Shown: positions 4,365-62,860 of the stretch, piece by piece
Layout of the letters: the number at the start of each line of letters is the position of its first letter
Position numbering within the stretch: the stretch's first letter is position 1
NCBI GenBank assembly: GCA_964628905.1
Contig: CAZVNS010000002.1
Location: 25,767-89,766 of the forward strand
Direction of reading: 5' to 3'
Length of the DNA stretch: 64,000 bases
From: an uncultured Muribaculaceae bacterium
Lineage (GTDB): Bacteria > Bacteroidota > Bacteroidia > Bacteroidales > Muribaculaceae
Translations under genes and position numbers: made by a program
The notes under the pieces: model-generated
Database searches by the model: none
What the model was told of the DNA's origin: nothing
The model's input: the letters and a program-made list of their open reading frames with translations, nothing else

Positions 4365-6764
4365 ATGAACGAGAATAATATCGATAAGGAGAAAGAACAA
4401 GACAAGATGGATGTGGCGTTCGACCTCGGCGGACTGCTTCTCGATTATCTTGGCAATTGGAAATGGTTTGTGCTCAGCGTGGTGCTTTGTGCCTTCGCTG
4501 CGCATTTCTATATCAAGACGGTGATACCCACCTACGAGGTATCAGCCTCAATCTATCTTAACGGCGACGCCGCCAACCTGGCCGCTCAAGCCCTGTCTAT
4601 GTCCGACAATGATATGTCGTCGCAGAAGCAATTCCTCGACGAGACCGAGTTTGAGCTGATGAAGTCGCGCAACAACATGATGAAGGTTGTAGACTCGCTC
4701 GACCTGTATTACTCCTACGCTGAGGTGTCGCGTTTTCGCAACACCCCCATCTATAAGACCAACCAGGTGAGTGTCAAACTCGACACCCCCTACTTAGCCA
4801 ATCTTGACAAAATCATCACCCTTGAGCTGACCAACGGCGAAAAGGGTGGGGTGAACGTCAACCGCACCGTCGATGGTGAGCTCAAGTCATACGCCGTGGC
4901 CACCTTCCCCGACACCATCAAGCTGGACGAAGGCCCGCTGATCGTAGATTGCAAAGAGGGCTTCAAAGGGCTCGTCAACCCCATGGAGGTGCAGATCATG
5001 CCTCGGCGTGTGGCCGCCGGCCGCCTTACCGGAGACATGAGTATCCAGTATGCCGAAAAATCATTCACCGTGGTGCGCATCAATTACACCACTCCCCTTG
5101 TGGCTGAGGGCGTCGATGTGGTCAACACCATGATCAAGTTTTACAACGACGACATTATCGCCGACAAGAACCGTGCCGCCATCCAGACCGAGGCATTTAT
5201 CGTCGACCGTCTGAAGATGATAGCCAACGACCTGAAGGAAGTGGAGACTCAACTTGCGCAATATCAGAGCGAAAACAACGCCATCAACCTGGAAGGTCAG
5301 ACTCAGATGAACATGATGCAAAAGCAGGAGGCCGAGGATGAGATCGTCAACCTGCGCAGCGAGCGCGATAAGCTCGTCGAAGGCCGCAACTTAGTGCAGA
5401 GCGTTCCCGAGTTCCAGCCCATCTATGGTTTAAATTCAGATCCCGCCGTCGCTGAAAAAATCGAGGAGTACAACAAGAAAATCCGATCGTACGAAAACCT
5501 CTCCAACCTCACCGACGAGAATGTGCAGAAGCGCGAGCTGAAAGAGGAGATACCTCAACTCCGCCGCGGCATCATATCCACCATCAACCAAGGCATCAAG
5601 GGGTATGACGGTAAAATCCGCGCATTGCAAAGTCAAGCAGGTCAGGCAACAGCCAATACCTCATATATTCCTGAGAAGAAAAAAGGTTTGGAAGAGATTT
5701 TCCGCGATCAGCAGGTTAAGGTCAACATCTACACCTTCCTGCTCCAAAAGCGAGAGGACATCGCCTTGCAGAAGAACCTCGCCACGCCTACCGCCCGCCT
5801 AATCGACGACCCCACAGGCTCAGGCCCCGTATCGCCCAAGCGCGGCACGATCTATGCGCTCGCCCTGCTCATCGGTCTGGCGATCCCCGGAGGCATCATC
5901 TACCTGCGCCGTATGCTTTTCCCCGTATTCGCTGACCGCAACGACCTTGAGCGTGTCACCAGGGTGCCGGTGCTTAGCGAAATCAACCGTGTGAAGAAGT
6001 TGGACTCAGATATCGTGGTCAGCGCAAGTGGCACTACGGTAAGCGACGAGCTGTTCCGTCTGCTGCGCAACAACATCAAGTTTGTCATGGGTAAGGGTAA
6101 AGTGATGCTCGTCACCTCATCGCTCTCAGGCGAGGGTAAGACCTTTATCGCCACCAACCTGGCCATGTCGTTCGCCCTCACCGGCAAGCGTACCCTCGTG
6201 GTCGGACTCGATATACGCAGCCCGAAGCTTGCTCACGCATTCGGTATCAGCGACCGTGAAGGTATCACCAACTATCTTTGCGGCCAGACCGACGATTGGG
6301 CCTCGTTGGTTAAGCAGTCGTCGGAATGCCCCGACCTCTATGTGCTCCCCGCCGGATTCATACCGCCCAACCCCAATGAGCTGCTGCTGAGCGACCGACT
6401 CTCCGTCCTGATCCAGCAAGCCCGCGAAAGCTACGACTACATCATTCTCGACACAGCTCCTATCGGCCTGGTATCCGACTCACTGCTGATAACCCATCTG
6501 ACCGATGTACAGATATATGTAACCTGCGCTCGGTTCTCAACCCAGCGCTGCATCAAGCTGATGCACAACAATATCAAGTCGGGACGTCTGCCTCACGCCT
6601 ATCTGGTGCTCAACGGCGTGGACATGCGTTCAAGGACTTACTACTACCGCAGCTACGGTCAGTACGGCGGCAAGTCGGGTAAGGGCTACGGCTATGGCTA
6701 TGGCACTGAGACTCCTCGCTTGTCGTCACGCAAGAGCAACGTATGGCGTAAGCGTCGCAAATAA
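4365..6764 (+). CDS. chain-length determinant / tyrosine autokinase (Wzc/GumC-like)
   Basis: N-terminal TM plus a Wzz-like coiled-coil region, a second TM, Walker A SSLSGEGKT, and a C-terminal Tyr cluster YYYRSYGQYGGKSGKGYGYGYG. Confidence 0.85.
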   Translation: MNENNIDKEKEQDKMDVAFDLGGLLLDYLGNWKWFVLSVVLCAFAAHFYIKTVIPTYEVSASIYLNGDAANLAAQALSMSDNDMSSQKQFLDETEFELMKSRNNMMKVVDSLDLYYSYAEVSRFRNTPIYKTNQVSVKLDTPYLANLDKIITLELTNGEKGGVNVNRTVDGELKSYAVATFPDTIKLDEGPLIVDCKEGFKGLVNPMEVQIMPRRVAAGRLTGDMSIQYAEKSFTVVRINYTTPLVAEGVDVVNTMIKFYNDDIIADKNRAAIQTEAFIVDRLKMIANDLKEVETQLAQYQSENNAINLEGQTQMNMMQKQEAEDEIVNLRSERDKLVEGRNLVQSVPEFQPIYGLNSDPAVAEKIEEYNKKIRSYENLSNLTDENVQKRELKEEIPQLRRGIISTINQGIKGYDGKIRALQSQAGQATANTSYIPEKKKGLEEIFRDQQVKVNIYTFLLQKREDIALQKNLATPTARLIDDPTGSGPVSPKRGTIYALALLIGLAIPGGIIYLRRMLFPVFADRNDLERVTRVPVLSEINRVKKLDSDIVVSASGTTVSDELFRLLRNNIKFVMGKGKVMLVTSSLSGEGKTFIATNLAMSFALTGKRTLVVGLDIRSPKLAHAFGISDREGITNYLCGQTDDWASLVKQSSECPDLYVLPAGFIPPNPNELLLSDRLSVLIQQARESYDYIILDTAPIGLVSDSLLITHLTDVQIYVTCARFSTQRCIKLMHNNIKSGRLPHAYLVLNGVDMRSRTYYYRSYGQYGGKSGKGYGYGYGTETPRLSSRKSNVWRKRRK

Positions 6765-6792: not shown

Positions 6793-7479
6793 ATGATTAT
6801 GAAAAAGTATTTATCAGAGATGTTTGGCACACTGGTGCTGGTGCTCATGGGCTGCGGTGTGGCCGTTAGCCTTAATTGCGGAGTTGACGCAGGTTCAGTA
6901 GTAGGCACAGCCTTTGCCTTCGGTCTGGCCGTGGTGGCCATGGCCTACACCATAGGTGGCATCAGCGGATGCCACATCAACCCCGCCATCACACTCGGCG
7001 TATGGCTTTCGCGTCGCATGAGCGGCCGCGACGCCATCATGTACATGATATTCCAAGTGATAGGCGCCATCATCGGAGCTGCTCTTCTCTACTGGCTCGT
7101 CGACTCTAACACGGCTCTCAACGGCATGGGAGCTAACAAATGCCAAGAAGGAGTGTCGACCTTGGGCGGACTCCTCTCAGAAATCATCTTCACCTTCGTG
7201 TTTGTGCTCGTAGTGCTGGGCACTACTGATGAGAAGAAGGGCGCAGGCAAGTTTGCCGGCCTGGCCATCGGCCTGTCGCTGGTGCTCGTCCACCTGGTGT
7301 GCATCGCCTACACCGGCACTTCAGTCAATCCCGCCCGTTCAATCGGTCCGGCCCTGTTTGCCCGCGGCGCGGCCCTTGAGCAGCTTTGGATCTTCATCGT
7401 TGGCCCCTTCGTGGGAGCTATCCTCTCTGCCGGCGTGTGGGCTTTGCTCGGTACCGACAGCAAGAAAACCGACGAATAA
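6793..7479 (+). CDS. aqpZ: aquaporin (MIP family)
   Basis: Two NPA boxes (HINPAITLG, VNPARSIGPA) and six hydrophobic helices. The start is trimmed to ATG 6793 (MIMKKYLSEMFG) to avoid overlapping the previous gene. Confidence 0.9.
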   Translation: MIMKKYLSEMFGTLVLVLMGCGVAVSLNCGVDAGSVVGTAFAFGLAVVAMAYTIGGISGCHINPAITLGVWLSRRMSGRDAIMYMIFQVIGAIIGAALLYWLVDSNTALNGMGANKCQEGVSTLGGLLSEIIFTFVFVLVVLGTTDEKKGAGKFAGLAIGLSLVLVHLVCIAYTGTSVNPARSIGPALFARGAALEQLWIFIVGPFVGAILSAGVWALLGTDSKKTDE

Positions 7480-7498
7480 TCCGAAAATGTAGTTTTCA

Positions 7499-7522
7499 GG
7501 GGACGCACCTCAGTGCGTCCCC
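7499..7522 (+). terminator. GC-rich hairpin downstream of aqpZ (GGGGACGCAC-ctca-GTGCGTCCCC)
   Basis: Perfect 10-bp stem 20 nt after the aqpZ stop, with no T-tract after it. A second perfect 9-bp hairpin (GGGCGTAAT-gct-ATTACGCCC) lies at 7531-7551. Confidence 0.5.
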
Positions 7523-12032: not shown

Positions 12033-13755
12033 TCGCAAACAATCAGATAAATATAAGTTTGAGCTGACACGATATCGTCGGCAACAATCCCGCGGCCCGT
12101 TGTGGTGCCTGATTTTGGCTGTAATAGTGCCGCTGACTTTGATCATCCCCAACGTGGCCCTATCAATCACCGAAAGCATGGGCTTCTGGGGAGGTTCGGC
12201 CAACATCCTGCTGCCGTTGGGCGTGTTCGGGCTGTTGATGACAGTGTCGCGCCGCACAGGCATCAGCGCATTATGGTTCCTGCCGCTTCAGGTGCTCGCC
12301 GCATTCCAGATAGTGCTGCTTTTCCTTTACGGGGAGTCGCTGATCGCTGTGGATATGTTCCTTAACGTGGTCACCACCAACCCTCGTGAGGTAGGAGAAC
12401 TGTTGGGCAACCTGCTTTCGGCCATCTTCACGGTGGTCATCATCTACCTGCCGGTGATAGTGCTCGCCATCGTGGCCGCTGTGAAGCGTTGGAGACTCGA
12501 CATACTCGTCAAGGACACCTACCGCACAGTGGCCGCCACGGTCACATTGATTGGTATCGTGGCCTTGATAGTGTCATATATAATTTATCCGGCCTTTGGG
12601 GTCACCCGCGACCTCTTTCCCATCAACGGTCTCACCAACCTGGGCATCGCCGTCGACCGCTCAATCGATATGGCCCGCTACCCCAAAACGTCAGCCGACT
12701 GGGCCTACGAAGCACGCTCGCTACGCCCCGACTCGCTCCCCGAGACCTATATCCTCGTAATTGGCGAAACCACACGCGCCGACAACTGGCAGCTCGATGG
12801 ATATGGCCGTGAGACAAATCCCCGCCTGTCGCAGGTCGAAGGATTGACATTCTTCACTAAAGCCCTGACGCAGAGCAACACCACACATAAGAGTGTGCCC
12901 ATGATGCTGTCGAGCCTGACGGCTGAGGATTTCGCCGACGTCAACCAGCGCAAGGGGTTGATTACAGCCTTCAATGAGGCCGGTTACGCTACCTATTTCT
13001 ACTCCAACCAGCGTCGCAACCACTCCTACATCGACCACTTCGGCGAAGAGGCAGCATCACACCAGTTTATCAAGGATGACGGCAAGGAGCACTACGACCG
13101 CGAGTTGCTACCCCTTATCGCCGAGGCACTCGCCGACAGCACGCAGACCAAGAAGCTCATCGTGGTGCACACCTATGGCTCGCATTTCAACTACCGCGAC
13201 CGTTACACCGACGAATATTCCCACTTCAAGCCCGACCATGTGGTCGACGCCAACGAAGGCAACCGCTCGCAGCTCGTCAACGCCTACGACAACACCGTGC
13301 GTTATGTCGACTCGTTCTTAGCCGACATCAACCAGCAGCTTGAGGACTCAGGGGTGGTGGGAGCCATGATTTACGCCTCCGACCACGGCGAGGATATCTT
13401 TGACGACTATCGAGGACGGTTACTCCATGCATCCCCCACACCCACATACACGCAGCTGCATGTGCCGCTGCTCGTGGCAGTAAGCCCCGAGCACAGCGGC
13501 GCTTATCCGGCTATGACACAAGCGTTGAGTGATAATTCTCAAAAATATGTGGCAACGTCGGCAGCGATATTCCACACCCTGCTGCAGCTTGCCGGAGTCA
13601 CGGTCAAGGACTACGATGAGGGGCAGTCGGTAGCGTCAGGCGAGTACCAGCCGCCGTCGCCTCGTTACCTCACCGACCGCAACGAGGCCGTCGACCTGCG
13701 CCAGTCAGGCGTAAAGCCCATCGACATCGAGCGCCTCGACTCCCTCGGCATCTGA
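12019..13755 (+). CDS. phosphoethanolamine transferase (EptA-like, sulfatase superfamily)
   Basis: Five N-terminal TM helices plus a sulfatase domain (VIGETTRADN, VHTYGSHFNY, YASDHGE). The start is trimmed to ATG 12019 (MKLFNRKQ), overlapping the upstream gene by 14 nt. Confidence 0.8.
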   Translation: MKLFNRKQSDKYKFELTRYRRQQSRGPLWCLILAVIVPLTLIIPNVALSITESMGFWGGSANILLPLGVFGLLMTVSRRTGISALWFLPLQVLAAFQIVLLFLYGESLIAVDMFLNVVTTNPREVGELLGNLLSAIFTVVIIYLPVIVLAIVAAVKRWRLDILVKDTYRTVAATVTLIGIVALIVSYIIYPAFGVTRDLFPINGLTNLGIAVDRSIDMARYPKTSADWAYEARSLRPDSLPETYILVIGETTRADNWQLDGYGRETNPRLSQVEGLTFFTKALTQSNTTHKSVPMMLSSLTAEDFADVNQRKGLITAFNEAGYATYFYSNQRRNHSYIDHFGEEAASHQFIKDDGKEHYDRELLPLIAEALADSTQTKKLIVVHTYGSHFNYRDRYTDEYSHFKPDHVVDANEGNRSQLVNAYDNTVRYVDSFLADINQQLEDSGVVGAMIYASDHGEDIFDDYRGRLLHASPTPTYTQLHVPLLVAVSPEHSGAYPAMTQALSDNSQKYVATSAAIFHTLLQLAGVTVKDYDEGQSVASGEYQPPSPRYLTDRNEAVDLRQSGVKPIDIERLDSLGI

Positions 13756-23940: not shown

Positions 23941-23987
23941 TTATTTCAGAATAAAATAACCGGGCTAAAAAGTTTTTTAGCCCGGTT
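23941..23987 (-). terminator. intrinsic terminator of ald
   Basis: AACCGGGCTAAAAA/TTTTTAGCCCGGTT hairpin (23958-23987), followed on the minus strand by TTATTTTATTCTG. Confidence 0.75.
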
Positions 23988-24016
23988 GTGGGGAAGAGGG
24001 CGATTGATGGAGGTGG

Positions 24017-24090
24017 TCGAATAAAATCGAGTTAAGTTGAGTTAAGTCGAGGGAGGGTCGAGTTAAGTCGAGGGGAGGTAGGTCGAGGGG
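24017..24090. repeat. phased about-10-bp TCGA array (7 units) in the ald 3' UTR
   Basis: TCGA (one TTGA) starts at 24017, 24027, 24037, 24047, 24058, 24068 and 24083. Units are TCGAGTTAAG and TCGAGGGAGGG types. The array lies between the ald stop (24110) and its terminator hairpin (23958-87). Confidence 0.8.
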
Positions 24091-24109
24091 GCGAGAGCCC
24101 CCGGCGGGA

Positions 24110-31056: not shown

Positions 31057-31065
31057 GTGATGGGG

Positions 31066-31115
31066 ATTTCGATTTCTCTCGATTTAAGTCGATTTAATTC
31101 GATTTAGGTCGAGGG
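31066..31115. repeat. phased 10-bp TCGA array (5 units) abutting a stop codon
   Basis: TCGA starts at 31069, 31079, 31089, 31099 and 31109, exactly 10 bp apart. Units are TCGATTTCTC, TCGATTTAAG, TCGATTTAAT, TCGATTTAGG and TCGAGGGTTA. The array ends at the stop codon (31116) and precedes the terminator hairpin. Confidence 0.85.
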
Positions 31116-33056: not shown

Positions 33057-33287
33057 AATGTAAGTATTATGTGTGTGAATATTTGTTTTTGTCAATAACG
33101 GTAAACGCAAAGTAAACGATTGTAATAGGAGTGACAAAATGAATTAACTAAAATAATATGTTAAAATCAGTTAAATATCTCTTTTTTGCCACATTTTTAG
33201 TGGAATAAATATCATTTTGCCAAATATTATACAACTTTCTGCACAATTGATGAATTTTTGTGATGAATTCCTAACCAACCCAGTCTC

Positions 33288-33377
33288 GTCCGACAAGTCC
33301 GACAGGTCTGACAGATCCGACAGATCCGGTAGTTTAGAAAAGCCGGACAGGTCAGAATGCTCTGACGAGTCCGACTT
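33288..33377. repeat. phased 9-bp GTCCGACAG-type array (10 units)
   Basis: Units GTCCGACAA, GTCCGACAG, GTCTGACAG, ATCCGACAG, ATCCGGTAG, TTTAGAAAA, GCCGGACAG, GTCAGAATG, CTCTGACGA and GTCCGACTT in unbroken 9-bp register. The array begins 20 nt after the rbr stop. Confidence 0.8.
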
Positions 33378-33396
33378 CTATGGTGGTTGTTGGTGA

Positions 33397-40930: not shown

Positions 40931-40937
40931 CCATCCG

Positions 40938-40973
40938 CTCTGACCTGTCTGACCTGTCCGACAGGTCGGAGAT
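40938..40973. repeat. short 9-bp array (CTCTGACCT GTCTGACCT GTCCGACAG GTCGGAGAT) in a 3' UTR
   Basis: Four units in 9-bp register, starting 8 nt after the stop codon and ending 10 nt before the terminator hairpin. The unit type matches that at 33288-33377. Confidence 0.65.
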
Positions 40974-40983
40974 TGAATAAAAT

Positions 40984-41206: not shown

Positions 41207-41332
41207 ACGAGTAGGGTCGCTCCCCGGAGCGTACGCATTATAATCCCCATATAATCAAGCGGCTGCATCGGTGGGATGCAGCCGCTTTGTGTGGTGTATG
41301 TCGCGGACGCTCCGGGGAGCGACCCTACTCGT
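41207..41332. repeat. MITE-like composite palindrome: 30-bp terminal inverted repeats of the REP-like element around an inner 13-bp hairpin
   Basis: Left arm ACGAGTAGGGTCGCTCCCCGGAGCGTACGC (41207-36). Right arm GCGGACGCTCCGGGGAGCGACCCTACTCGT (41303-32). The arms match at 29/30 positions. The inner hairpin AAGCGGCTGCATC/GATGCAGCCGCTT lies at 41257-87. Confidence 0.7.
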
Positions 41333-46870: not shown

Positions 46871-46923
46871 TAAGGTCGTTAGGGACTTTAAGGTCGTAAA
46901 GACTCTAAGGACTTTAAAAAATT
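46871..46923. repeat. 9-bp TAAGGTCGT/TAAGGACTT array in the pyrE-downstream intercistronic gap
   Basis: Units TAAGGTCGT, TAGGGACTT, TAAGGTCGT, AAAGACTC, TAAGGACTT and TAAAAAATT. They fill most of the 84-nt gap between the pyrE stop (46934) and the next start (46849). Confidence 0.75.
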
Positions 46924-56011: not shown

Positions 56012-57172
56012 TTAAAGGTTTTTGTTACAGATGATTTCTTCGGCCAGGGAGCGCGTCAGTGAGTTGGTGGCCACATAGTCGTCGTAGGTGGGCGATGCGA
56101 TATGGTCCACACGCTCCAGGCAGTCGGTAATAGTAGTGTAGATGTCGCCAAAGCCTATGCGGCCCTGACGGAAGGAGGCGTTGGCCACCTCGTTGGCGGC
56201 GTTGATCACGCAAGCGGTGTTGCCGCCGCGCCCCAGGGCGTAGTGCCCCAAGGTGATGCAGGGGAAGCGGTCGGTGTCAGGCTCCTCAAAGGTGAGCTGG
56301 GACATATCCTTGAATGTCAGGCCCGGGTCGGAAGTCTCCAGGCGTGTGGCGTCGCCAAGGGCGTAGCGTATGGGCAGACGCATGTCGGGCACGCCGAGCT
56401 GAGCCTTGACAGCACCGTCGACCATCTCCACCATTGAGTGAACTATCGACTGCGGGTGCACTACAGCTGTAATCCGCTTAGGTTCAATGTCAAAGAGCCA
56501 GTGTGCCTCGATGATTTCGAATGCTTTGTTGAGCATCGTGGCCGAGTCAATTGTGATTTTGGCGCCCATTGACCAGTTGGGGTGATGGAGGGCGTCGGCC
56601 ACAGTGACCCGGCTAAGCTGTTCGGCGGGGGTGTTGCGGAAGGGGCCGCCGGATGCAGTGATGATCAGGCGGCGCACCTTGTCAGGGTGCTCACCCTGAA
56701 GGCATTGGTATATGGCTGAGTGCTCTGAGTCGACGGGTATCACCGTCGACCATGACTTCGACAGCTCTTGGGTGACCAAATCGCCGGCCACCACGAGGGT
56801 CTCCTTGTTGGCAAGGGCTATATCCTTGGCGGCACGGATGGCGCGGAGTGTGGGGGCGAGGCCGCTGTAGCCCACGGTGGCGGTAACCACGGTGTCGAAG
56901 CAGTCGAGCTCCATGGCGTCGGCTATGGCGTCAGCTCCGGCAGCGGTGTTGATGCCCAAGGGGGCGAGGGCGTCGCGCAACTGGCTGTAGCGGCTCTCGT
57001 CGGCGATGATGGCCCACTCAGGCTTGTGCCTGATGGCCTGCTCGATCAGAGCGTCAACCTTGCTGCCGGCAATCAACACGCTGGCTGTGAAGCGGTCGGG
57101 GTATTGGGAGATTATGTCGAGCGTCTGGGTGCCGATAGAGCCGGTGGAGCCCAGCACTGCAATTTTCTTCAT
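56012..57172 (-). CDS. dxr: 1-deoxy-D-xylulose-5-phosphate reductoisomerase
   Basis: VLGSTGSIGTQTLD, NKETLV and DSEHSAI motifs, 386 aa. Confidence 0.95.
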   Translation of the reverse strand: MKKIAVLGSTGSIGTQTLDIISQYPDRFTASVLIAGSKVDALIEQAIRHKPEWAIIADESRYSQLRDALAPLGINTAAGADAIADAMELDCFDTVVTATVGYSGLAPTLRAIRAAKDIALANKETLVVAGDLVTQELSKSWSTVIPVDSEHSAIYQCLQGEHPDKVRRLIITASGGPFRNTPAEQLSRVTVADALHHPNWSMGAKITIDSATMLNKAFEIIEAHWLFDIEPKRITAVVHPQSIVHSMVEMVDGAVKAQLGVPDMRLPIRYALGDATRLETSDPGLTFKDMSQLTFEEPDTDRFPCITLGHYALGRGGNTACVINAANEVANASFRQGRIGFGDIYTTITDCLERVDHIASPTYDDYVATNSLTRSLAEEIICNKNL

Positions 57173-57201: not shown

Positions 57202-57209
57202 CAAAGGTA
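57202..57209 (-). promoter_or_regulatory. candidate -7 promoter box TACCTTTG for dxr
   Basis: Exact TAnnTTTG match on the minus strand, 30 nt upstream of ATG 57172. The TCGA array begins about 22 bp further upstream. Confidence 0.5.
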
Positions 57210-57230
57210 CAAAAAATTCGCGAAACTCCC

Positions 57231-57346
57231 ACTCGACATCCCTCGACATCCCTCGACATCCCTCGATTTAAGCCGATTTAAGTCGATTTAAGTCGATTTA
57301 AATCGAATGAAATCGACCTAAATCGAGAATAATTCGGGGCTTCGAT
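57231..57346. repeat. phased 10-bp TCGA array (about 12 units)
   Basis: TCGA (or CCGA/TTCG) starts at 57233, 57243, 57253, 57263, 57273, 57283, 57293, 57303, 57313, 57323, 57333 and 57342. There are three perfect CTCGACATCC units, then TCGATTTAAG-type units. Confidence 0.9.
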
Positions 57347-57356
57347 GTCAGTGGGA

Positions 57357-57965
57357 TTAGAGGAGGCCGAGGTCCTCGGGAGAGAGTATGCGCTTGATGC
57401 CGATGTAACGGCTGCTGTAGTAGGCGTCGCCAAGGGTGTCGATGCGCACTCCGCGGCTGGTGGAGGCGTGGATAAAGCTGATGGCCCCGGTCAGGGGGTT
57501 GACCTCGGTGATGATGCCCACATGGCCCACGGTCTTGCCGGAGCGGCGGCCGCTGAAGAAAATCAGGTCGCCGGGCTGTGCGTCGCTGCGGCTCACCTTC
57601 TCACCCTGGGTGTACTGGCTGCGCGAGTCGCGGAGCAGGTCGTAGCCGAACTGGTGGAACACGTAGCTCGTGAAACCTGAGCAGTCGAAGCTCTTGGGCC
57701 CGGCGGTGCCGCGGCGGTAGGGACGGCCTATGTATTTCTTGGCGTAGGCGAGCAGGTCGGTTGCCACGATATCCTGCTGCGCCTTTTGCATCAGGGCGTG
57801 GGCATTGATTTTGGCGCTGATTGCCGCTGCGTATTGCTCGTTGTCCAACTCATCCTGACCCACTGTCACCGCTTTGGCCGCCGCGTGGGCGTGCTGAGCA
57901 GCTGCCGGCATTGCGGATGCCAGCAGCAGAGCGACGAAAATGAGTAGGATGCGGTTTATTTTCAT
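57357..57965 (-). CDS. C40 (NlpC/P60) peptidase
   Basis: Signal peptide, catalytic Cys context FDCSGFTSYVF, His context VGHVGII, 202 aa. Confidence 0.85.
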   Translation of the reverse strand: MKINRILLIFVALLLASAMPAAAQHAHAAAKAVTVGQDELDNEQYAAAISAKINAHALMQKAQQDIVATDLLAYAKKYIGRPYRRGTAGPKSFDCSGFTSYVFHQFGYDLLRDSRSQYTQGEKVSRSDAQPGDLIFFSGRRSGKTVGHVGIITEVNPLTGAISFIHASTSRGVRIDTLGDAYYSSRYIGIKRILSPEDLGLL

Positions 57966-58153: not shown

Positions 58154-58186
58154 CACAAGTAGGGTCGCACCCTGGTTCGTCCGCAG
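58154..58186. repeat. REP-like element copy downstream of radA
   Basis: CACAAGTAGGGTCGCACCCTGGTTCGTCCGCAG is 29/33 identical to the copy at 60696-60728. Confidence 0.7.
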
Positions 58187-59594: not shown

Positions 59595-59601
59595 GGGGGT
59601 A

Positions 59602-59633
59602 GGGTTTTTAGATTTTTTAGAGTTTTTAGAGTT
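59602..59633. repeat. phased T5-6 tracts (TTTTTAGA-type units) abutting the radA start codon
   Basis: GGTTTTTAGA TTTTTTAGAG TTTTTAGAG, with T-tracts starting at 59605, 59613 and 59623. On the radA sense strand these are A-tracts 10-40 nt upstream of the ATG. Confidence 0.6.
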
Positions 59634-59728
59634 GCGCCCTGCGGGCGCTCTGCTCTTGATTTTGTTTTCCGCATGCCAGCGAGCGCAGCGAGACGGCTTG
59701 CGGTTATATAGAGGGTCGCCCGGCGGGC

Positions 59729-59809
59729 TTTTAGCTTTTAAGGACTTTTAGGTCGTTAAGGACTTTTAGGTCATTAAGGTCGTTAAGGACTTTAAGGTCG
59801 TTAAGGATT
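59729..59809. repeat. phased 9-bp TTAAGGnCn array (8-9 units) overlapping the stop codon of the SpoU/TrmH-family gene
   Basis: Units at 59738, 59747, 59756, 59765, 59774, 59783, 59792 and 59801: TTAAGGACT, TTTAGGTCG, TTAAGGACT, TTTAGGTCA, TTAAGGTCG, TTAAGGACT, TTAAGGTCG, TTAAGGATT. The last unit encodes N-P-stop of the gene on the minus strand. Confidence 0.9.
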
Positions 59810-60562
59810 AAGGGTGCGCCGGCGGAATTCAGCAACGGTGATGGCTGCGGCCACACCCACGTTGAGCGACTCCACAGTGTCGGCCGTGGCGGGGTAGGGG
59901 GGTATCAGCAGCCGCTGAGTCACCAGGCGCCCTACGGTGGGGGATATGCCGTTGGCCTCGTTGCCCATCACTATCACACCGTTGGTGGTCAGAGGCGCAT
60001 CGTAGAGAATATCACCGTCGAGGTGTGTGCCGTAAATCGGAGCCTTGATCTGCGAAAGTGTGCTGTTGAGGTCGAGATAGTGCACGGCCACACGCCCGAT
60101 AGCTCCCATCGTGGCTTGCACCACCTTGGGGTTGAACACGTCGACAGTGTCGACCGAGCAGAGTATGTGCTTGATGCCAAACCAGTCAGCGAGCCTGACG
60201 ATGGTGCCCATGTTGCCGGGATCGCGGACGCTGTCAAGGGCGAGCACCAGTTCGGTCGAGGGTGTGGTGGGGTCGAAGGTCGGCTGGGGGATGTCGAACA
60301 CCGCGATTACCGGCTGCGGCGACTGCTGTTGCGACATCTTCTTGATTTGCTGAGGGGTAGCTGTGTTGACCTCGTTGGCTAAGAGCTGTTGCAGCGGGTG
60401 CTCGGCCAGCCACTCCTCGGTGGCGATCAGCCGGCGGCATTGCAGCAGCGGCAGCAGCTCCACCACACACCGCGTACCCTCAGCCGCGAACAGCCCCAGC
60501 TCCCTCCGGTGCTTTACCGCCCCGAGCGAGCCCACAGTCTTGATGGTGTTGTTGGTCAGCAT
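59801..60562 (-). CDS. SpoU/TrmH family RNA 2'-O-methyltransferase
   Basis: SPOUT domain motifs (DSVRDPGNMGTIVRLADWFG, IVMGNEANGIS, LNVGVAAAI), 253 aa. Confidence 0.8.
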   Translation of the reverse strand: MLTNNTIKTVGSLGAVKHRRELGLFAAEGTRCVVELLPLLQCRRLIATEEWLAEHPLQQLLANEVNTATPQQIKKMSQQQSPQPVIAVFDIPQPTFDPTTPSTELVLALDSVRDPGNMGTIVRLADWFGIKHILCSVDTVDVFNPKVVQATMGAIGRVAVHYLDLNSTLSQIKAPIYGTHLDGDILYDAPLTTNGVIVMGNEANGISPTVGRLVTQRLLIPPYPATADTVESLNVGVAAAITVAEFRRRTLNP

Positions 60563-60599
60563 TACGTTTTTTTAAGGGACAAATGTACGGAAAAGTTTG

Positions 60600-60607
60600 T
60601 AAATTTG
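60600..60607 (+). promoter_or_regulatory. candidate -7 promoter box TAAATTTG for the S8 peptidase gene
   Basis: Exact TAnnTTTG match 22 nt upstream of ATG 60629. Confidence 0.45.
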
Positions 60608-60628
60608 CGTAATCATTGAAAAATTCAG

Positions 60629-62860
60629 ATGCAAATACACACACGACTTATAGCAATCTTATCAGCGGCTCTATTCTCCCTGGGCTGCCTCGCCTCACAA
60701 GTGGGGTCGCACCCAGGTGCGTCCGCGGTGCAAGAGCAATCCCAAGAACAGTCCCCTGTGCTCGATGTGCGCAGCCGCCATATCGCCGACCGATATAAAT
60801 CGTTGGCTAAAAAGCGTATTCGCACGGCGTCGGCAGATGAGCCGGAGCAGGTAGTGTATATGCCAGCGGTGCTTAGGCTCGACCCCGGAACCACTGTGGC
60901 GGACCTTGAGGAGATGGGCGTCAAGGTGATGCGACAGCGCTTAAACCTGGTGCTTGCGTTCGTCCCCACCGACCGTATCGACCAGCTTGTCACCTTCTCC
61001 GGCATCAACCGCATGAGCCTGTCGGAGCCTAACCTCCCGGCCCTCGACCGCGCGCTCCCATTCTGTCAGACCGACCAGCTGATCGGCCTCGCTCCGGGGA
61101 TGCCGCGCAGTTGGAGCGGCAAAGGTGTGGTGGTGGGTCTGACCGACATCGGTATCGACCCTTGGCATCCCAACTTTATCGCCCCCGACGGTGAGCCGCG
61201 AGTGAAGCGGTTTGTGACATATCGCGACACCCTCGGCGTGCGCTCCATAGCCACCCCCGCCGAACCGGCGGCTTTAGTGAGTGATAACTCCGACGAATGG
61301 CACGGCACCCACGTGCTCGGTATCCTCGCCGGTGGATACACCGGCACTCCCTACCGCGGCATCGCCTCCGAAGCCGAGATTGTGGCCACGGCCAGCATGC
61401 TCACCGATGCCTGCATACTCGATGGCATCGAGGAGGTGATCGACTACGCCCGAGAGCAGGGTAAGCCCGCTGTCGTGAATATGTCGGTAGGCTCCTACAC
61501 CGGTCCCCACGACGGCACCACGCTGTTCAACCAATATCTCGACCTGATGGGCCGCGAGGCGATAATCGTGATGTCGGCCGGCAACGAAGGGGAGTCGAAG
61601 ATCTACTTCAACCACCGCTTCTCCACTGACGAACCCCGCAAGTCGGTGTGCGTCACCGACCACAAGTGGTATAACTGCCAACGCAACTATGGCTCAACCG
61701 ACTTTTGGAGCCGTGATGAGCGCGAATTCAAGATGGCCTTGGAGGTTCGCGACATGTCCGACTACTCGATGGTGGCCTCCTTCCCCATGGTGGGAGGCCC
61801 CGACAGCCGCGAGTGGGAGATAGCCTCGCCGGGCTACGCGACCACCAATGATGCGGTGCATAGCGATGTGTTCGACCGCTATTACCGCGGCTACTTTCGG
61901 CTGTCAGCCGGAGTCGACCCCGACAACGGTCGCTTCCATATCTATACCTCGATGGACCTGAGTTGCACCGACCTCCTTGGCGAGATGGGGCGCTACTTCG
62001 TCACACTCACCATCGCGGGTGACCCCGGAGTTGAGGTCGACGCCTATGCCGATGCCTACCAGGTGGAGTTCAACCACGGTGGCACGAGCCGCTTTGCCCA
62101 GGCCGGAGCCGACCGGTCGATAAGCGACATAGCCTGCGGGCACAACGTGATAGTGGTGGGGGCCGCCACATCGCGCAACACCGCCCCCACCTTGGCCGGC
62201 CCGCTGCTCGACTACACCCGCTACAACGAGGGTGAGGTTGCTCCATGGTCGAGTTATGGTGTGCTCGACGATGGACGCTCATTGCCGCACATTGCCGCGC
62301 CTGGCGGTTTCCTGATATCGTCTGTGTCGGGTGAGTATGTGAGGGCGCACCCTGAGGATGAGGGCCTGATGTCGTACAAAACCACCGTCAATGGCCGCGA
62401 CGCATGGTGGATATGCGAGGGAGGCACGTCGATGTCGGCCCCCTACGTGGCCGGAGTGATAGCCCTGCTGCTTGAGCAGGATCCCACGCTCGACGTTGAG
62501 CAAGTGCGCGGGCTGCTGATGTCGACTGCCGACAGCGATATGGCTGATGCCGCCGACATACGTTGGGGAGCCGGGAGGCTCAACGCCCCGGCGGCTATGC
62601 GCGAACTGTTAAAGCTTAATGGCGTGGCCGATGTGGCCGCTGACCGCGAGCCGATGATTGATGTGAGCTTTGAGCCTGGCCGGATTGTGATACTTGCCGC
62701 CGACTCGGCCCGTGGCGAGGTGGCGGTTTACGCCATCGACGGACGCCCTATGCTTCAGACCACTATCAGTGGCCCCCGCACCGAAATCGCTACCGAGTCG
62801 TTCCCCGCCGGCGTCTACCTGCTCCGCACCCCCACCTCCACCCACAAGTTCCACAAATGA
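60629..62860 (+). CDS. S8 (subtilisin-like) serine peptidase with a T9SS C-terminal sorting domain
   Basis: Catalytic triad contexts VVVGLTDIGID (Asp), HGTHVLGILAG (His) and GGTSMSAPYVAGVIALL (Ser). Signal peptide ending LGC. C-terminus VAVYAIDGRPML...FPAGVYLLRT...KFHK is typical of T9SS sorting domains. Confidence 0.9.
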   Translation: MQIHTRLIAILSAALFSLGCLASQVGSHPGASAVQEQSQEQSPVLDVRSRHIADRYKSLAKKRIRTASADEPEQVVYMPAVLRLDPGTTVADLEEMGVKVMRQRLNLVLAFVPTDRIDQLVTFSGINRMSLSEPNLPALDRALPFCQTDQLIGLAPGMPRSWSGKGVVVGLTDIGIDPWHPNFIAPDGEPRVKRFVTYRDTLGVRSIATPAEPAALVSDNSDEWHGTHVLGILAGGYTGTPYRGIASEAEIVATASMLTDACILDGIEEVIDYAREQGKPAVVNMSVGSYTGPHDGTTLFNQYLDLMGREAIIVMSAGNEGESKIYFNHRFSTDEPRKSVCVTDHKWYNCQRNYGSTDFWSRDEREFKMALEVRDMSDYSMVASFPMVGGPDSREWEIASPGYATTNDAVHSDVFDRYYRGYFRLSAGVDPDNGRFHIYTSMDLSCTDLLGEMGRYFVTLTIAGDPGVEVDAYADAYQVEFNHGGTSRFAQAGADRSISDIACGHNVIVVGAATSRNTAPTLAGPLLDYTRYNEGEVAPWSSYGVLDDGRSLPHIAAPGGFLISSVSGEYVRAHPEDEGLMSYKTTVNGRDAWWICEGGTSMSAPYVAGVIALLLEQDPTLDVEQVRGLLMSTADSDMADAADIRWGAGRLNAPAAMRELLKLNGVADVAADREPMIDVSFEPGRIVILAADSARGEVAVYAIDGRPMLQTTISGPRTEIATESFPAGVYLLRTPTSTHKFHK
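60696..60728. repeat. REP-like element copy embedded in the S8 peptidase coding sequence
   Basis: CACAAGTGGGGTCGCACCCAGGTGCGTCCGCGG encodes residues 23-34 (SQVGSHPGASAV), directly after the signal peptide Cys20. Confidence 0.7.

Follow-up and report, generated by a model that had tools for sequence, protein, structure and literature searches.

Between the stop codon of a gene for a C40 peptidase and the promoter of dxr, an uncultured Muribaculaceae bacterium carries an array in which TCGA recurs every 10 bp. Is such an array a control element of the essential gene beside it, a platform for proteins that read one face of the helix, or a by-product of the way in which short repeats grow in free spacer DNA? 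The locus is considered here within a window of 64,000 nt, the whole stretch of DNA that was analysed, and against relatives and known repeat classes. The reading that suits the array best is a tandem repeat, lineage-specific and quick to evolve, that belongs to an ordinary class as an unusual member and is no conserved regulatory device.

Architecture of the array

The flanking genes named in the original prediction agree with matches to Pfam. In the direction in which these minus-strand genes are read, the locus comprises:

57357 to 57965, minus strand: open reading frame of the upstream gene, an NlpC/P60 (C40) peptidase (Pfam PF00877, 1e-24), with its TAA stop codon at 57357 to 57359
57333 to 57356: degenerate tail, TTCGGGGCTT then CGATGTCAGTGGGA, read on the minus strand as TCCCACTGACATCGA; outer 5' arm of the predicted hairpin, which begins 1 nt past the stop codon (from sequence and fold)
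57263 to 57332: seven units of TCGA (one CCGA) plus A/T-rich filler, with a TCGA-YTTAAR core that is its own inverted repeat (from the register listing, TRF, the shuffle scan and comparison of the inverted arms)
57233 to 57262, promoter-nearest end: three perfect 10-bp units, TCGACATCCC in the register of the original prediction and GGGATGTCGA in mRNA sense (TRF 57232 to 57266, 3.5 copies, 100% matches; register listing)
57202 to 57209, minus strand: TACCTTTG box of the putative dxr promoter, with a T6 run before it (from sequence and alignment with the sister species L082 and L083)
56012 to 57172, minus strand: the downstream gene dxr, for DXP reductoisomerase (Pfam PF02670, PF08436 and PF13288)

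A listing of the register confirms the phase-locked array at 57233 to 57323. TCGA begins at 57233, 57243, 57253, 57263, 57283, 57293, 57303, 57313 and 57323, all 3 mod 10, with degenerate in-phase copies at 57273 (CCGA) and 57333 (TTCG) and a final TCGA at 57342 that is out of register by -1; ten TCGA (the nine in register and the last) and one CCGA fall within 116 bp. The perfect units read CTCGACATCC in the TRF output and are followed by TCGATTTAAG-type units (TRF 57263 to 57306, 4.4 copies, 91%), the succession of filler types that had been predicted. Phase is indeed kept while filler drifts, the fillers in 57263 to 57332 being TTTAAG (three times), TTTAAA, ATGAAA, CCTAAA and GAATAA. The unit is made of two palindromes, TCGA and TTTAAA or CTTAAG, and the palindromes created by the units of the array also include GTCGAC and ATCGAT.

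The spacing to the neighbours came out as predicted, with 11 nt from the C40 TAA stop to the nearest TCGA and 21 to 23 bp from the array to the TACCTTTG box, which we take, from established knowledge of Bacteroidetes promoters, to be a promoter of their TAnnTTTG type.

Arrays elsewhere in the window

A scan for (TCGA N6)x3 plus TCGA with at most one mismatch gave 10 matches at 3 loci in the 64-kb window and 0.00 in 100 dinucleotide shuffles, well above the expectation for shuffled sequence. More broadly, the 5.0 kb of intergenic DNA contains seven arrays of period 8 to 11 with at least three copies, where a shuffle set yields 0.015, and the 57 kb of coding DNA contains one. The window contains seven or eight arrays with 9- to 10-bp units, the C40-dxr array included. 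The others are:

24016 to 24109, minus strand: sister array of 10-bp CTCGACTTAA / CTCGACCCTCC units, placed after the stop codon of the alanine dehydrogenase gene and ahead of a canonical terminator at 23987 to 23958
31060 to 31115, minus strand: sister array of 10-bp TCGATTTAAG units with five phased TCGA, starting 3 nt past a stop codon, with a strong hairpin (-26.2 kcal/mol) and a U-run next
33288 to 33396, minus strand: 9-bp array behind the stop codon of the rubrerythrin gene, its mRNA-sense unit being CTGTCNGAC
40931 to 40975, plus strand: 9-bp array, CTGTCTGAC and CTGTCCGAC, of the family of the 33288 array, after the stop of a plus-strand gene and followed by a hairpin of -32.7 kcal/mol
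46871 to 46918, minus strand: 9-bp family CGACCTTAA / AGTCCTTAA, which takes up the 84 bp that separate two minus-strand genes
59728 to 59806, minus strand: 9-bp array CCTTAANNN, 7 to 8 copies, of the family of the 46871 array, its start falling within the final codons of the gene for SpoU methylase
59600 to 59633, minus strand: 9-bp array immediately before the start codon of radA, its mRNA-sense unit being AACTCTAAA; the sole array that does not adjoin a stop codon

Seven related arrays had been predicted. TRF finds every one of these loci, and the relationship holds for two of them, 24017 and 31066, which are TCGA arrays of 10-bp period; those at 33288, 40938, 46871, 59602 and 59729 have 9-bp units of other sequence. 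Units are common to separate loci 7 to 33 kb apart: TCGAnTTAA at 24016, 31060 and 57263, CCTTAA at 46871 and 59728, and CTGTCNGAC at 33288 and 40931. The 40931 array has the same orientation relative to mRNA as the 33288 array, despite lying behind a plus-strand gene.

All arrays but one lie within 0 to 22 nt of a stop codon, three of them between the stop codon and a canonical terminator, and arrays of this kind follow about a quarter of the window's stop codons. Since three of the sister arrays have their own strong terminator downstream, termination is not a general role of this class. A supply of backup in-frame stop codons was also considered and rejected: the TAA stop of the SpoU methylase gene belongs to the first units of the 59728 array, which has TAA every 9 nt in frame, and the other arrays have no such series. 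Separately, GTAG-tagged REP-like palindromes (GTAGGGTCGCWCCC) stand in the window at 41211, 41328 and 58159.

A tandem repeat that is also a hairpin

Where the original prediction saw no hairpin, the inverted arms 57262 to 57294 and 57295 to 57327 (33 nt each, with a gap of 0 nt) are 85% complementary, pairing extends to other registers, and the RNA fold of the region, which recurs in a 167-nt context, reaches -62 to -65 kcal/mol.

57227 to 57356, minus strand: the whole element, predicted to form, within the 3' untranslated region of C40, a single imperfect hairpin with about 48 pairs (MFE -61.7 kcal/mol, z -6.6)

The plus strand of the same segment folds at -56.6 kcal/mol (z -8.9). The z-scores, -5.3 to -8.9 over both strands, are uninformative on selection, because folding is unavoidable in a tandem array whose unit is self-complementary: an array of a two-palindrome unit is its own reverse complement and can therefore pair in many registers, offset by 5 or 10 nt. 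The outer stem, TCCCACUGACAUC paired with GAUGUCGAGUGGGA, with GUUUCGCGAAUUUUUU coming after the hairpin, uses the non-repeat flanks TCCCACTGACATC / GATGTCGAGTGGGA, and therefore the hairpin frames the array.

Selection for an mRNA-sense hairpin across the class is not indicated, as the antisense (plus, G/T-rich) strand folds better in most arrays, which is expected because of G-U pairing and strand skew. Nor does the element belong to a known structured RNA family: at the gathering score, Rfam 15 recognised only two tRNAs in the window, and relaxed thresholds added only sub-threshold matches to generic microRNA-precursor hairpins.

The hairpin resembles an intrinsic terminator in lying directly downstream of a gene, in having U-rich sequence next, and in occupying the slot of a shorter hairpin in a sister species. 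Unlike such terminators, in which a U-run directly abuts a short G+C-rich stem-loop, its stem is long (about 48 pairs), interrupted and rich in A-U and G-U pairs, the U-runs stand apart from it (U3 after 1 nt, U6 after 11 nt), and other arrays of the class come with a terminator of their own. This departure from the textbook form counts against reading it as a terminator; the output of a simple consensus terminator scan does not include it.

Comparison with relatives

Apart from the source contig, the exact C40 protein was found on a single Logan contig of 1.5 kb (SRR10165007), where the array is identical; for the exact dxr protein and an exact 646-aa protein no record was found. The representative genomes do not include the species, their closest dxr being that of Muribaculaceae MAGs at 74% identity, and the 80 dxr loci compared have neither conserved synteny nor an array upstream of dxr.

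Two sister species share with the window the gene order SpoU-radA-C40-dxr-rseP. In both, the C40-dxr spacer is 124 bp long and lacks the array. One of them (L082) has a 12+4-pair hairpin at the position corresponding to the array; the hairpin in the other (L083) is weak, with z +0.6. The sister-species segment GGGGGAAATATCG aligns with GGGATGTCGAGTGGGAGTTTCG of the window, and conservation extends to the dxr 5' end and to the promoter, whose shared stretch is TTTTTTnGTAyCTTTGCG. A conserved regulatory element of dxr can be set aside on these grounds, the array being missing upstream of the 80 representative dxr genes and in the closest sisters of equal gene order. Because these arrays are missing from the orthologous spacers of relatives and the dxr promoter is conserved, the arrays are lineage-specific expansions that are not needed for dxr expression.

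At the 3' end of SpoU the sister species do have a related 9-bp TCAACCNNN array, matching the place of the 59728 array and containing 48 to 53% C and 0% G. In the relative L207, orthologues of three other array-bearing genes are followed by a stop codon, 20 to 30 nt and a terminator, with no arrays behind them. Array density is 8 in the 64 kb of the window, as against mostly 0 to 1 per 21 kb in relatives.

A proposed origin by slippage

The account that we favour, which could well be right and could equally fail, is that the C40-dxr array is a minisatellite that slipped-strand mispairing has enlarged around an older hairpin, and that the C40 mRNA carries it at its 3' end as a long hairpin. The 10-bp unit would have multiplied about an older short hairpin in the free stretch from the C40 stop to the promoter of dxr, where nothing constrains the sequence. 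Self-pairing of the two-palindrome unit may stabilise slipped intermediates, helping arrays to grow and to persist. The array would be transcribed as C40 3' untranslated region and lie outside the dxr promoter machinery, and its hairpin of about 48 pairs is a putative 3'-end structure (a terminator or a 3' stabiliser) that may keep transcription of C40 apart from the dxr promoter.

Perfect units at one end with progressive decay toward the other are typical of polar minisatellite growth, which supports slippage. The three perfect units are the youngest portion of the array, and their presence at one end makes VNTR behaviour plausible. Slippage alone does not explain why units are common to separate loci, nor why the YTTAAR fillers are the commonest among the period-10 TCGA metagenome matches listed, including some from a different phylum.

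Possible action as DNA

It is possible, if unlikely, that the element works as DNA: some 100 to 130 bp of anisotropically bendable or cruciform-forming sequence could be a platform for gyrase or an HU/IHF-like protein, or an absorber of supercoils. Enterobacterial REP/BIME elements have been reported as such platforms between transcription units, and the length of this element, about 130 bp, is comparable to that of the DNA which gyrase wraps. The persistence of an exact 10-bp phase through drifting filler would suit such a role, as would zero-gap inverted repeats in several registers; the presence of the unit at three window loci and in Opitutaceae fits a physical property or a ubiquitous protein better than a single regulator. 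Against it, the period is 9 bp in four or five arrays of the window, a spacing that drifts off a single face of the helix, orthologous spacers of relatives have no array, and no binding protein or partner gene was identified.

Along the array a G/C-rich half-turn (TCGAC) alternates with an A/T-rich half-turn (TTAAA) every 10 bp. Static curvature, which the original prediction had inferred from this phasing, is not predicted by a wedge model: the ratio of end-to-end distance to contour length is 0.959 for the array and 0.961 for its shuffles, and 0.997 for (TCGATTTAAA)n, with parameters checked only through two controls, phased A6 (0.29) and A3T3 (0.54), both of which bend strongly as they should. 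Curved DNA of the phased A-tract type is excluded likewise by the A/T blocks themselves, since TTTAAA and TTTAAG contain a TpA step and TTTAAA is a T3A3 element, no A-tract.

Phased protein-binding arrays are familiar from the parC iterons of type II plasmid partition systems and from tandem sites of the OmpR/PhoB family. The C40-dxr array is like them in its phasing of 10 to 11 bp over about 100 bp, with sites on one helix face, and unlike them in its chromosomal housekeeping context, the lack of a partner gene, the many loci within 64 kb and the lack of conservation in relatives.

Less probable readings: action as RNA, methylation, mobility and promoter activation

A site acting in the transcript is decidedly improbable. 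The phased YC dinucleotides after the stop codon, the UC of every UCGA, where the RNA is free of ribosomes, would on such a reading form a Rho-utilisation site or a multi-site sponge for another, oligomeric RNA-binding protein. Placement right behind stop codons and ahead of terminators agrees with this, as do an excess of C over G in mRNA sense in six of the seven arrays (C/G 1.25 to 3.15), the composition of the sister species' SpoU array, and the consistent orientation of units relative to mRNA within each family, one plus-strand case included. The C40-dxr array is, however, the exception, with C/G of 0.76, and nearly all of it is predicted to pair, the reverse of what Rho loading would call for; Rho loading here is therefore weak, whatever holds for the C-rich arrays. 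The orientation bias, moreover, tracks local G/T strand skew and rests on one plus-strand example, and relatives do not conserve the arrays.

A cluster of methylation sites, as the original prediction had also proposed, is very improbable. TCGA is a known methyltransferase target (M.TaqI), and 10 to 11 TCGA on one face might serve a TaqI-type enzyme as an epigenetic switch or a restriction decoy; the density of ten TCGA and one CCGA in 116 bp would favour this, as would the further palindromes that the units create. Yet with 549 sites, or 8.6 per kb, throughout the window, TCGA is neither avoided nor array-specific, the 9-bp families lack it, and the spacer of the sister species has no array to methylate.

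We give equally little credence to the idea that a transposase, for example a RAYT, inserted or copied the array as a mobile or enzyme-propagated repeat of MITE or REP/BIME type. Units common to distant loci, the inverted ends that frame the element, its location at a gene 3' end, as with REPs, and the occurrence of GTAG-tagged palindromes in the window could all be cited for it. The end sequence, however, is single-copy in the 64 kb, other matches having 2 to 3 mismatches and those that were placed lying inside called ORFs; since it is not repeated elsewhere in the window, the array is no mobile element. There is no target-site duplication, flanks differ at each array, ten array-flanking genes scanned against Pfam include no transposase, and alignment of the promoter-proximal arm with sister-species sequence points to local growth over insertion. 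A MITE in particular is rejected, inverted ends notwithstanding, as the end sequence is unique in the window and the borders carry no duplication.

Least probable of all is an upstream activating element of the dxr promoter (acting by intrinsic curvature, in an UP-like manner or as a tandem site for a response regulator, and tuning expression through the number of units), for although the array ends about 21 to 23 bp upstream of the TACCTTTG box with its perfect units promoter-nearest, and contains CTTAAA-N4-CTTAAA, which we take to resemble the direct-repeat sites of the OmpR/PhoB family and which is a lead only, the promoter and the dxr 5' end are almost unchanged in sister species that lack the array, no curvature is predicted, and other arrays of the family are cut off from the next promoter by a terminator.

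Relation to described repeats

With slippage as the preferred origin, the nearest described class is that of simple repeats. In the account of Mrazek, Guo and Shah (2007) given in PMC4679880, LSSR with 5- to 11-nt units are mostly intergenic and sporadic, and derive from slippage in current thinking; heptamers predominate in most genomes according to the same summary. The C40-dxr array, like the other arrays of the window, has the features of LSSR and minisatellites: a short unit repeated head to tail, a length beyond chance expectation, and perfect beside decayed copies. It differs in that the window's units are 9 and 10 bp, the C40-dxr unit is made of two palindromes whose array is also a long hairpin, and a unit is common to several loci.

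TAACTGA heptamer repeats are intergenic and of unknown function, occur in Beggiatoaceae, Cyanobacteria and some Bacteroidetes, and lie mostly a few nt upstream of start codons, where they have been proposed as translational regulator sites (PMC4679880). The window's arrays share with them a short tandem unit at many intergenic sites, a consistent gene orientation and recurrence in unrelated phyla; unlike them, they follow stop codons and are self-complementary, and with unit, period and position all different this type is rejected. REPs are single palindromes of 20 to 40 bp with a conserved tetranucleotide tag (GTAG/CGTC), spread by RAYT transposases, and the roles proposed for REP/BIME include mRNA stabilisation, termination and supercoiling (PMC3733652). 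The C40-dxr array is similarly extragenic and hairpin-forming, at a gene 3' end between a stop codon and the next promoter, but it is a 130-bp tandem repeat with unique ends, not a single palindrome, and has no such tag, so membership is rejected. It is no CRISPR array either: such arrays have identical repeats of 23 to 50 bp set apart by unique spacers of similar length, here the 10-bp units abut directly without spacers, and the Rfam CRISPR models gave nothing significant.

The prediction that no described family matches has stood: a full-text search of six 14-nt unit strings gave nothing relevant, Rfam gave nothing, and the full-text literature searched by repeat strings and for intergenic tandem repeats in Bacteroidetes does not describe the unit. 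Among the metagenome matches listed, which are a sample and no census and of which many are unrelated 5-mer satellites, TCGA-YTTAAR arrays recur, including in termite-gut Opitutaceae (Verrucomicrobiota), and the four most frequent fillers in period-10 TCGA arrays are those of the YTTAAR form. Some of the Opitutaceae arrays listed lie in divergent promoter gaps and therefore cannot be 3' UTR elements. Recurrence of this kind invites the thought that TCGA-YTTAAR arrays are a functional cross-phylum DNA element, generated by an enzyme or selected as a bendable, cruciform-forming, gyrase-type platform at transcription-unit borders, which we regard as rather improbable.

Implications

If the slippage reading is right, the locus is a caution: a phased repeat beside the promoter of an essential gene can be a slippage by-product in free spacer. 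It would also illustrate that "tandem" and "palindromic" are one property when a unit is built of two palindromes. Should the arrays prove instead to be a functional cross-phylum element, those of the window would be this lineage's functional counterpart of enterobacterial REP/BIME. The TCGA-YTTAAR unit, which an unrelated phylum also has, seems not to have been described before. The arrays are candidate strain-typing (VNTR) markers in a gut lineage that is uncultured, and with about a quarter of the window's 3' spacers carrying them, where relatives have a plain succession of stop codon, spacer and terminator, they point to an unusual propensity for such repeats, or use of them, in this lineage.

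Structure and position of the focal array

The array between the C40 (NlpC/P60) peptidase gene and dxr is real, far above chance and more structured than the original prediction saw. It was read on the strand opposite to both genes, and the spacer is laid out as follows.

57172, − strand: dxr start (ORF and Pfam)
57202-57209, − strand: TACCTTTG box upstream of dxr (sequence)
57231-57346: TCGA array
57357-57359, − strand: TAA stop of the C40 peptidase gene (ORF and Pfam)

Listing of the register confirmed the extent and the 10-bp phase originally described, with TCGA starting at 57233, 57243, 57253, 57263, 57283, 57293, 57303, 57313 and 57323, an in-register CCGA at 57273, TTCG at 57333 and a final TCGA at 57342 that is off by one base. 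The perfect units reported at the array start were likewise recovered by Tandem Repeats Finder (3.5 copies of CTCGACATCC at 57232-57266, then TCGATTTAAG-type units, 91% identity). In the proposed comparison with shuffled sequence, a pattern of four TCGA in phase, allowing a single mismatch, matched 10 times at three loci of the window, against 0.00 in 100 dinucleotide shuffles, and a chance origin is excluded.

The unit consists of two adjacent palindromes, TCGA and TTTAAA (or CTTAAG). Reverse-complementing (TCGATTTAAA)n gives the identical array moved four bases, which makes the tandem repeat one long palindrome as well. The earlier statement that there is no hairpin is contradicted by inverted arms at 57262-57294 and 57295-57327 (33 nt, 85% complementary, zero gap; the repeat finder gives four more registers) and by the fold predicted for 57227-57356 as RNA, a single interrupted hairpin of about 48 pairs. 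The mRNA-sense strand has a predicted energy of -61.7 kcal/mol (z = -6.6), the opposite strand one of -56.6 kcal/mol (z = -8.9); folding both strands gave no indication that an mRNA-sense fold has been selected, and since arrays of a self-complementary unit must fold anyway, the z-scores are no evidence of selection. The outermost stem extends beyond repeat units: on the promoter side GAUGUCGAGUGGGA is the partner of TCCCACUGACAUC, a segment beginning 1 nt past the C40 stop, and GUUUCGCGAAUUUUUU and then the TACCUUUG box follow downstream of the predicted hairpin.

Tests for membership in REP/BIME, MITE, CRISPR, A-tract and Rfam families placed the array in none of them. It is best filed as a prokaryotic minisatellite (long simple sequence repeat) with a double-palindrome 10-bp unit in a 3' spacer. 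A full-text literature search with six 14-nt strings built from array units returned no relevant paper, in keeping with the original remark of no known matching repeat family. The nearest described classes are the long simple sequence repeats (units of 5-11 nt) of Mrazek and colleagues, as summarised in PMC4679880, and the intergenic TAACTGA heptamer repeats (PMC4679880).

Expansion inside an older spacer

Identity of the dxr protein to its matches in representative genomes reaches 74% at most, the best being in Muribaculaceae MAGs, and the species is therefore an unrepresented Muribaculaceae-like Bacteroidales (window G+C 56%). No related dxr locus in representative genomes has the array upstream. 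Two sister species (contigs L082 and L083), found through the C40 protein at 70% identity, keep the gene order SpoU methylase-radA-C40-dxr-rseP; their C40-dxr spacers are 124 bp, against 184 bp in the window, and the TCGA array is absent from both. The L082 spacer has a predicted 12+4-pair hairpin (-27 kcal/mol for the whole spacer), and L083 has only a weak predicted one there.

In alignment, promoter and dxr start are nearly identical in all three from the T-run on (TTTTTTnGTAyCTTTGCG...ATGAAGAAAATTGC), and the sister segment GATGGGGGAAATATCG aligns with GATGTCGAGTGGGAGTTTCG of the window. The array is thus an expansion inside an older spacer, its promoter-side arm derived from ancestral sequence, and since the promoter is kept in species without the array, the dxr promoter does not need it. 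Both sister contigs also carry a Ser/Thr protein kinase gene between S8 peptidase and SpoU (L082 5988-7598, L083 6291-7574), which the window lacks, its S8 peptidase and SpoU genes lying side by side in divergent orientation (60563-60628).

A lineage-specific class of arrays

Arrays of period 8-11 bp with at least three copies number seven in 5.0 kb of intergenic DNA, against 0.015 in dinucleotide shuffles, and the 57 kb of coding sequence contain one; in most relatives the figure is 0-1 per 21 kb. The related arrays originally listed do exist, but only those at 24016 and 31060 are 10-bp TCGA arrays, the ones at 33288, 40931, 46871, 59600 and 59728 having a 9-bp period.

24016, 31060, 57263: family TCGAnTTAA, 10 bp
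33288, 40931: family CTGTCNGAC, 9 bp
46871, 59728: family CGACCTTAA / AGTCCTTAA, 9 bp
59600: outside the three families, before the radA start codon

Every array except 59600 starts 0-22 nt after a stop codon, and of roughly 27 gene ends that border 50 bp or more of spacer, 7 by our own count carry an array. The genes concerned are ordinary (by Pfam, alanine dehydrogenase, rubrerythrin, nucleoside phosphorylase, phosphoribosyltransferase and SpoU). At 24016, 31060 and 40931 the order is stop codon, array, terminator: each array has its own strong predicted hairpin downstream (-26 kcal/mol after 31060, -33 kcal/mol after 40931), with U-runs after those of 24016 and 31060.

In L207, a relative in which synteny is conserved (68% identity), a terminator follows the stop codon after 20-30 nt at the orthologues of rubrerythrin, the 673-aa protein and alanine dehydrogenase, with no array besides a two-copy 11-mer. 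The one spacer with arrays in the window and in the sister species alike is SpoU-radA: in the latter, a G-free 9-bp TCAACCNNN array (48-53% C; L082 8350-8403, L083 8339-8379) fills the gap from SpoU stop to radA start at the position of the window's 59728 array, with a unit related to CGACCTTAA but different. Together these comparisons indicate that the arrays are lineage-specific, with quick turnover.

Several further observations concern the window. The 9-bp CCTTAANNN array (59728-59806; 59801-59830) begins within the last codons of the SpoU gene, whose TAA stop is the first in a series of in-frame TAA at 9-nt spacing (tandem backup stops). GTAG-tagged REP-like palindromes (GTAGGGTCGCTCCCCGGAGCG...) are also present, four of them matching GTAGGGTCGCWCCC where 0.07 would be expected; an inverted pair of these encloses a hairpin that lies downstream of the 41374-42639 gene, and similar GTAGGG... 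palindromes occur in contig L133 and in Ereboglobus luteus (L206 10766-10849).

41211-41236, + strand: GTAG-tagged palindrome
41303-41328, − strand: GTAG-tagged palindrome
58159-58185, + strand: GTAG-tagged palindrome
60701-60714: weaker GTAG-tagged palindrome

An 824-bp "intergenic" gap of the crude ORF list contains a gene (6803-7520, + strand) whose product, MKKYLSEMFGTLVLVLMGCGVAV..., looks by eye like an aquaporin/MIP channel. Throughout the window C exceeds G on the coding strand, whichever strand that is (GC skew about -0.08 in regions of + strand genes and +0.15 to +0.2 in regions of − strand genes), and the arrays show the same skew.

Recurrence in other lineages

A metagenome scan for five phased TCGA found at least 120 stretches. 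Among the matches listed, with 5-mer satellites removed, at least 85 are period-10 arrays, 15 of TCGA-YTTAAR type; the four commonest fillers there are CTTAAG, CTTAAA, TTTAAG and TTTAAA, and many of the arrays come from termite-gut samples of 57-65% G+C. On one termite-gut contig (L184) arrays flank an exonuclease III gene on both sides, and its 83% identity to the Ereboglobus gene places the contig in Opitutaceae, Verrucomicrobiota. Termite-gut arrays also occupy divergent promoter gaps and reach to 3-13 nt from start codons, so the family overall is not confined to 3' ends.

No TCGA array occurs in 21 kb of Ereboglobus luteus genome sequence (L206, CP023004.1). Directly beside gene starts this piece carries AATGCGG heptamer arrays of 4.6 copies (4823-4854; 12060-12091; inverted copy 12134-12165), a different short-unit family in a phylum that also carries TCGA-YTTAAR arrays. 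Entire intergenic gaps of termite-gut contigs are short-repeat mosaics, like those of the window, with other short arrays adjoining the TCGA arrays: CCGAAATC x7 (L189 222-290), AACTTAAACTTAAC (L105 5983-6020) and GTCGCCACA/GTCGAAACA (L100 1765-1880). On two Bacteroidetes-like contigs (L156 1400-1470, L159 1330-1400) a TATATTTG promoter box has a 10-bp TCGA array just 5' of it, and repeated AAAACACCGGTGTTTTGAAAAC palindromes of operator-like appearance flank the array.

Origin and possible function

We give an even chance to the focal element being a slippage-grown minisatellite around an older hairpin that forms a long 3' hairpin of the C40 transcript. Slipped-strand mispairing would have enlarged the array where the spacer is least constrained, around that hairpin, and the double-palindrome unit, by letting slipped strands pair in many registers, may have favoured growth and persistence. 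As a presumed part of the C40 transcript, the array would fold into a long 3' hairpin, whose probable role is to terminate or stabilise the C40 mRNA and set it apart from the dxr promoter. The weak points are that the unit is common to separate loci and phyla, that the shape is unlike a typical terminator and that other arrays have separate terminators.

DNA that bends easily or forms a cruciform, serving a wrapping protein as platform or absorbing supercoils, would agree with the strict 10-bp phase, a length of about 130 bp and the recurrence across phyla, but is unlikely given the 9-bp families, which do not fit, and the lack of conservation. Loading of Rho or another RNA-binding protein on phased YC dinucleotides is a longer shot: other arrays are C-rich (C/G 1.25-3.15), but the focal array has C/G = 0.76 and is predicted to be almost fully paired. 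Slimmer still, and about equally so, are the prospects of a methylation cluster, as TCGA is abundant throughout the window (8.6 per kb), and of a mobile or enzyme-propagated repeat, which would account for units common to several loci but not for unique array ends or a promoter-side arm alignable with sister sequence. Curvature or UP-like activation of dxr is the least probable, being contradicted by the sister species; the intrinsic curvature originally suggested also fails in the wedge model (array 0.959, shuffles 0.961, (TCGATTTAAA)n 0.997, positive controls 0.29 and 0.54). Among 130-bp segments of the window, that model gives the strongest curvature at 33151-33280 (d/L 0.67), which is A/T-rich, lies upstream of the 31116-33137 gene and adjoins the 33288 array.

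The interest of the focal array lies in the dense arrays that follow stop codons in this lineage, and in the apparently undescribed recurrence of the TCGA-YTTAAR unit in two phyla.
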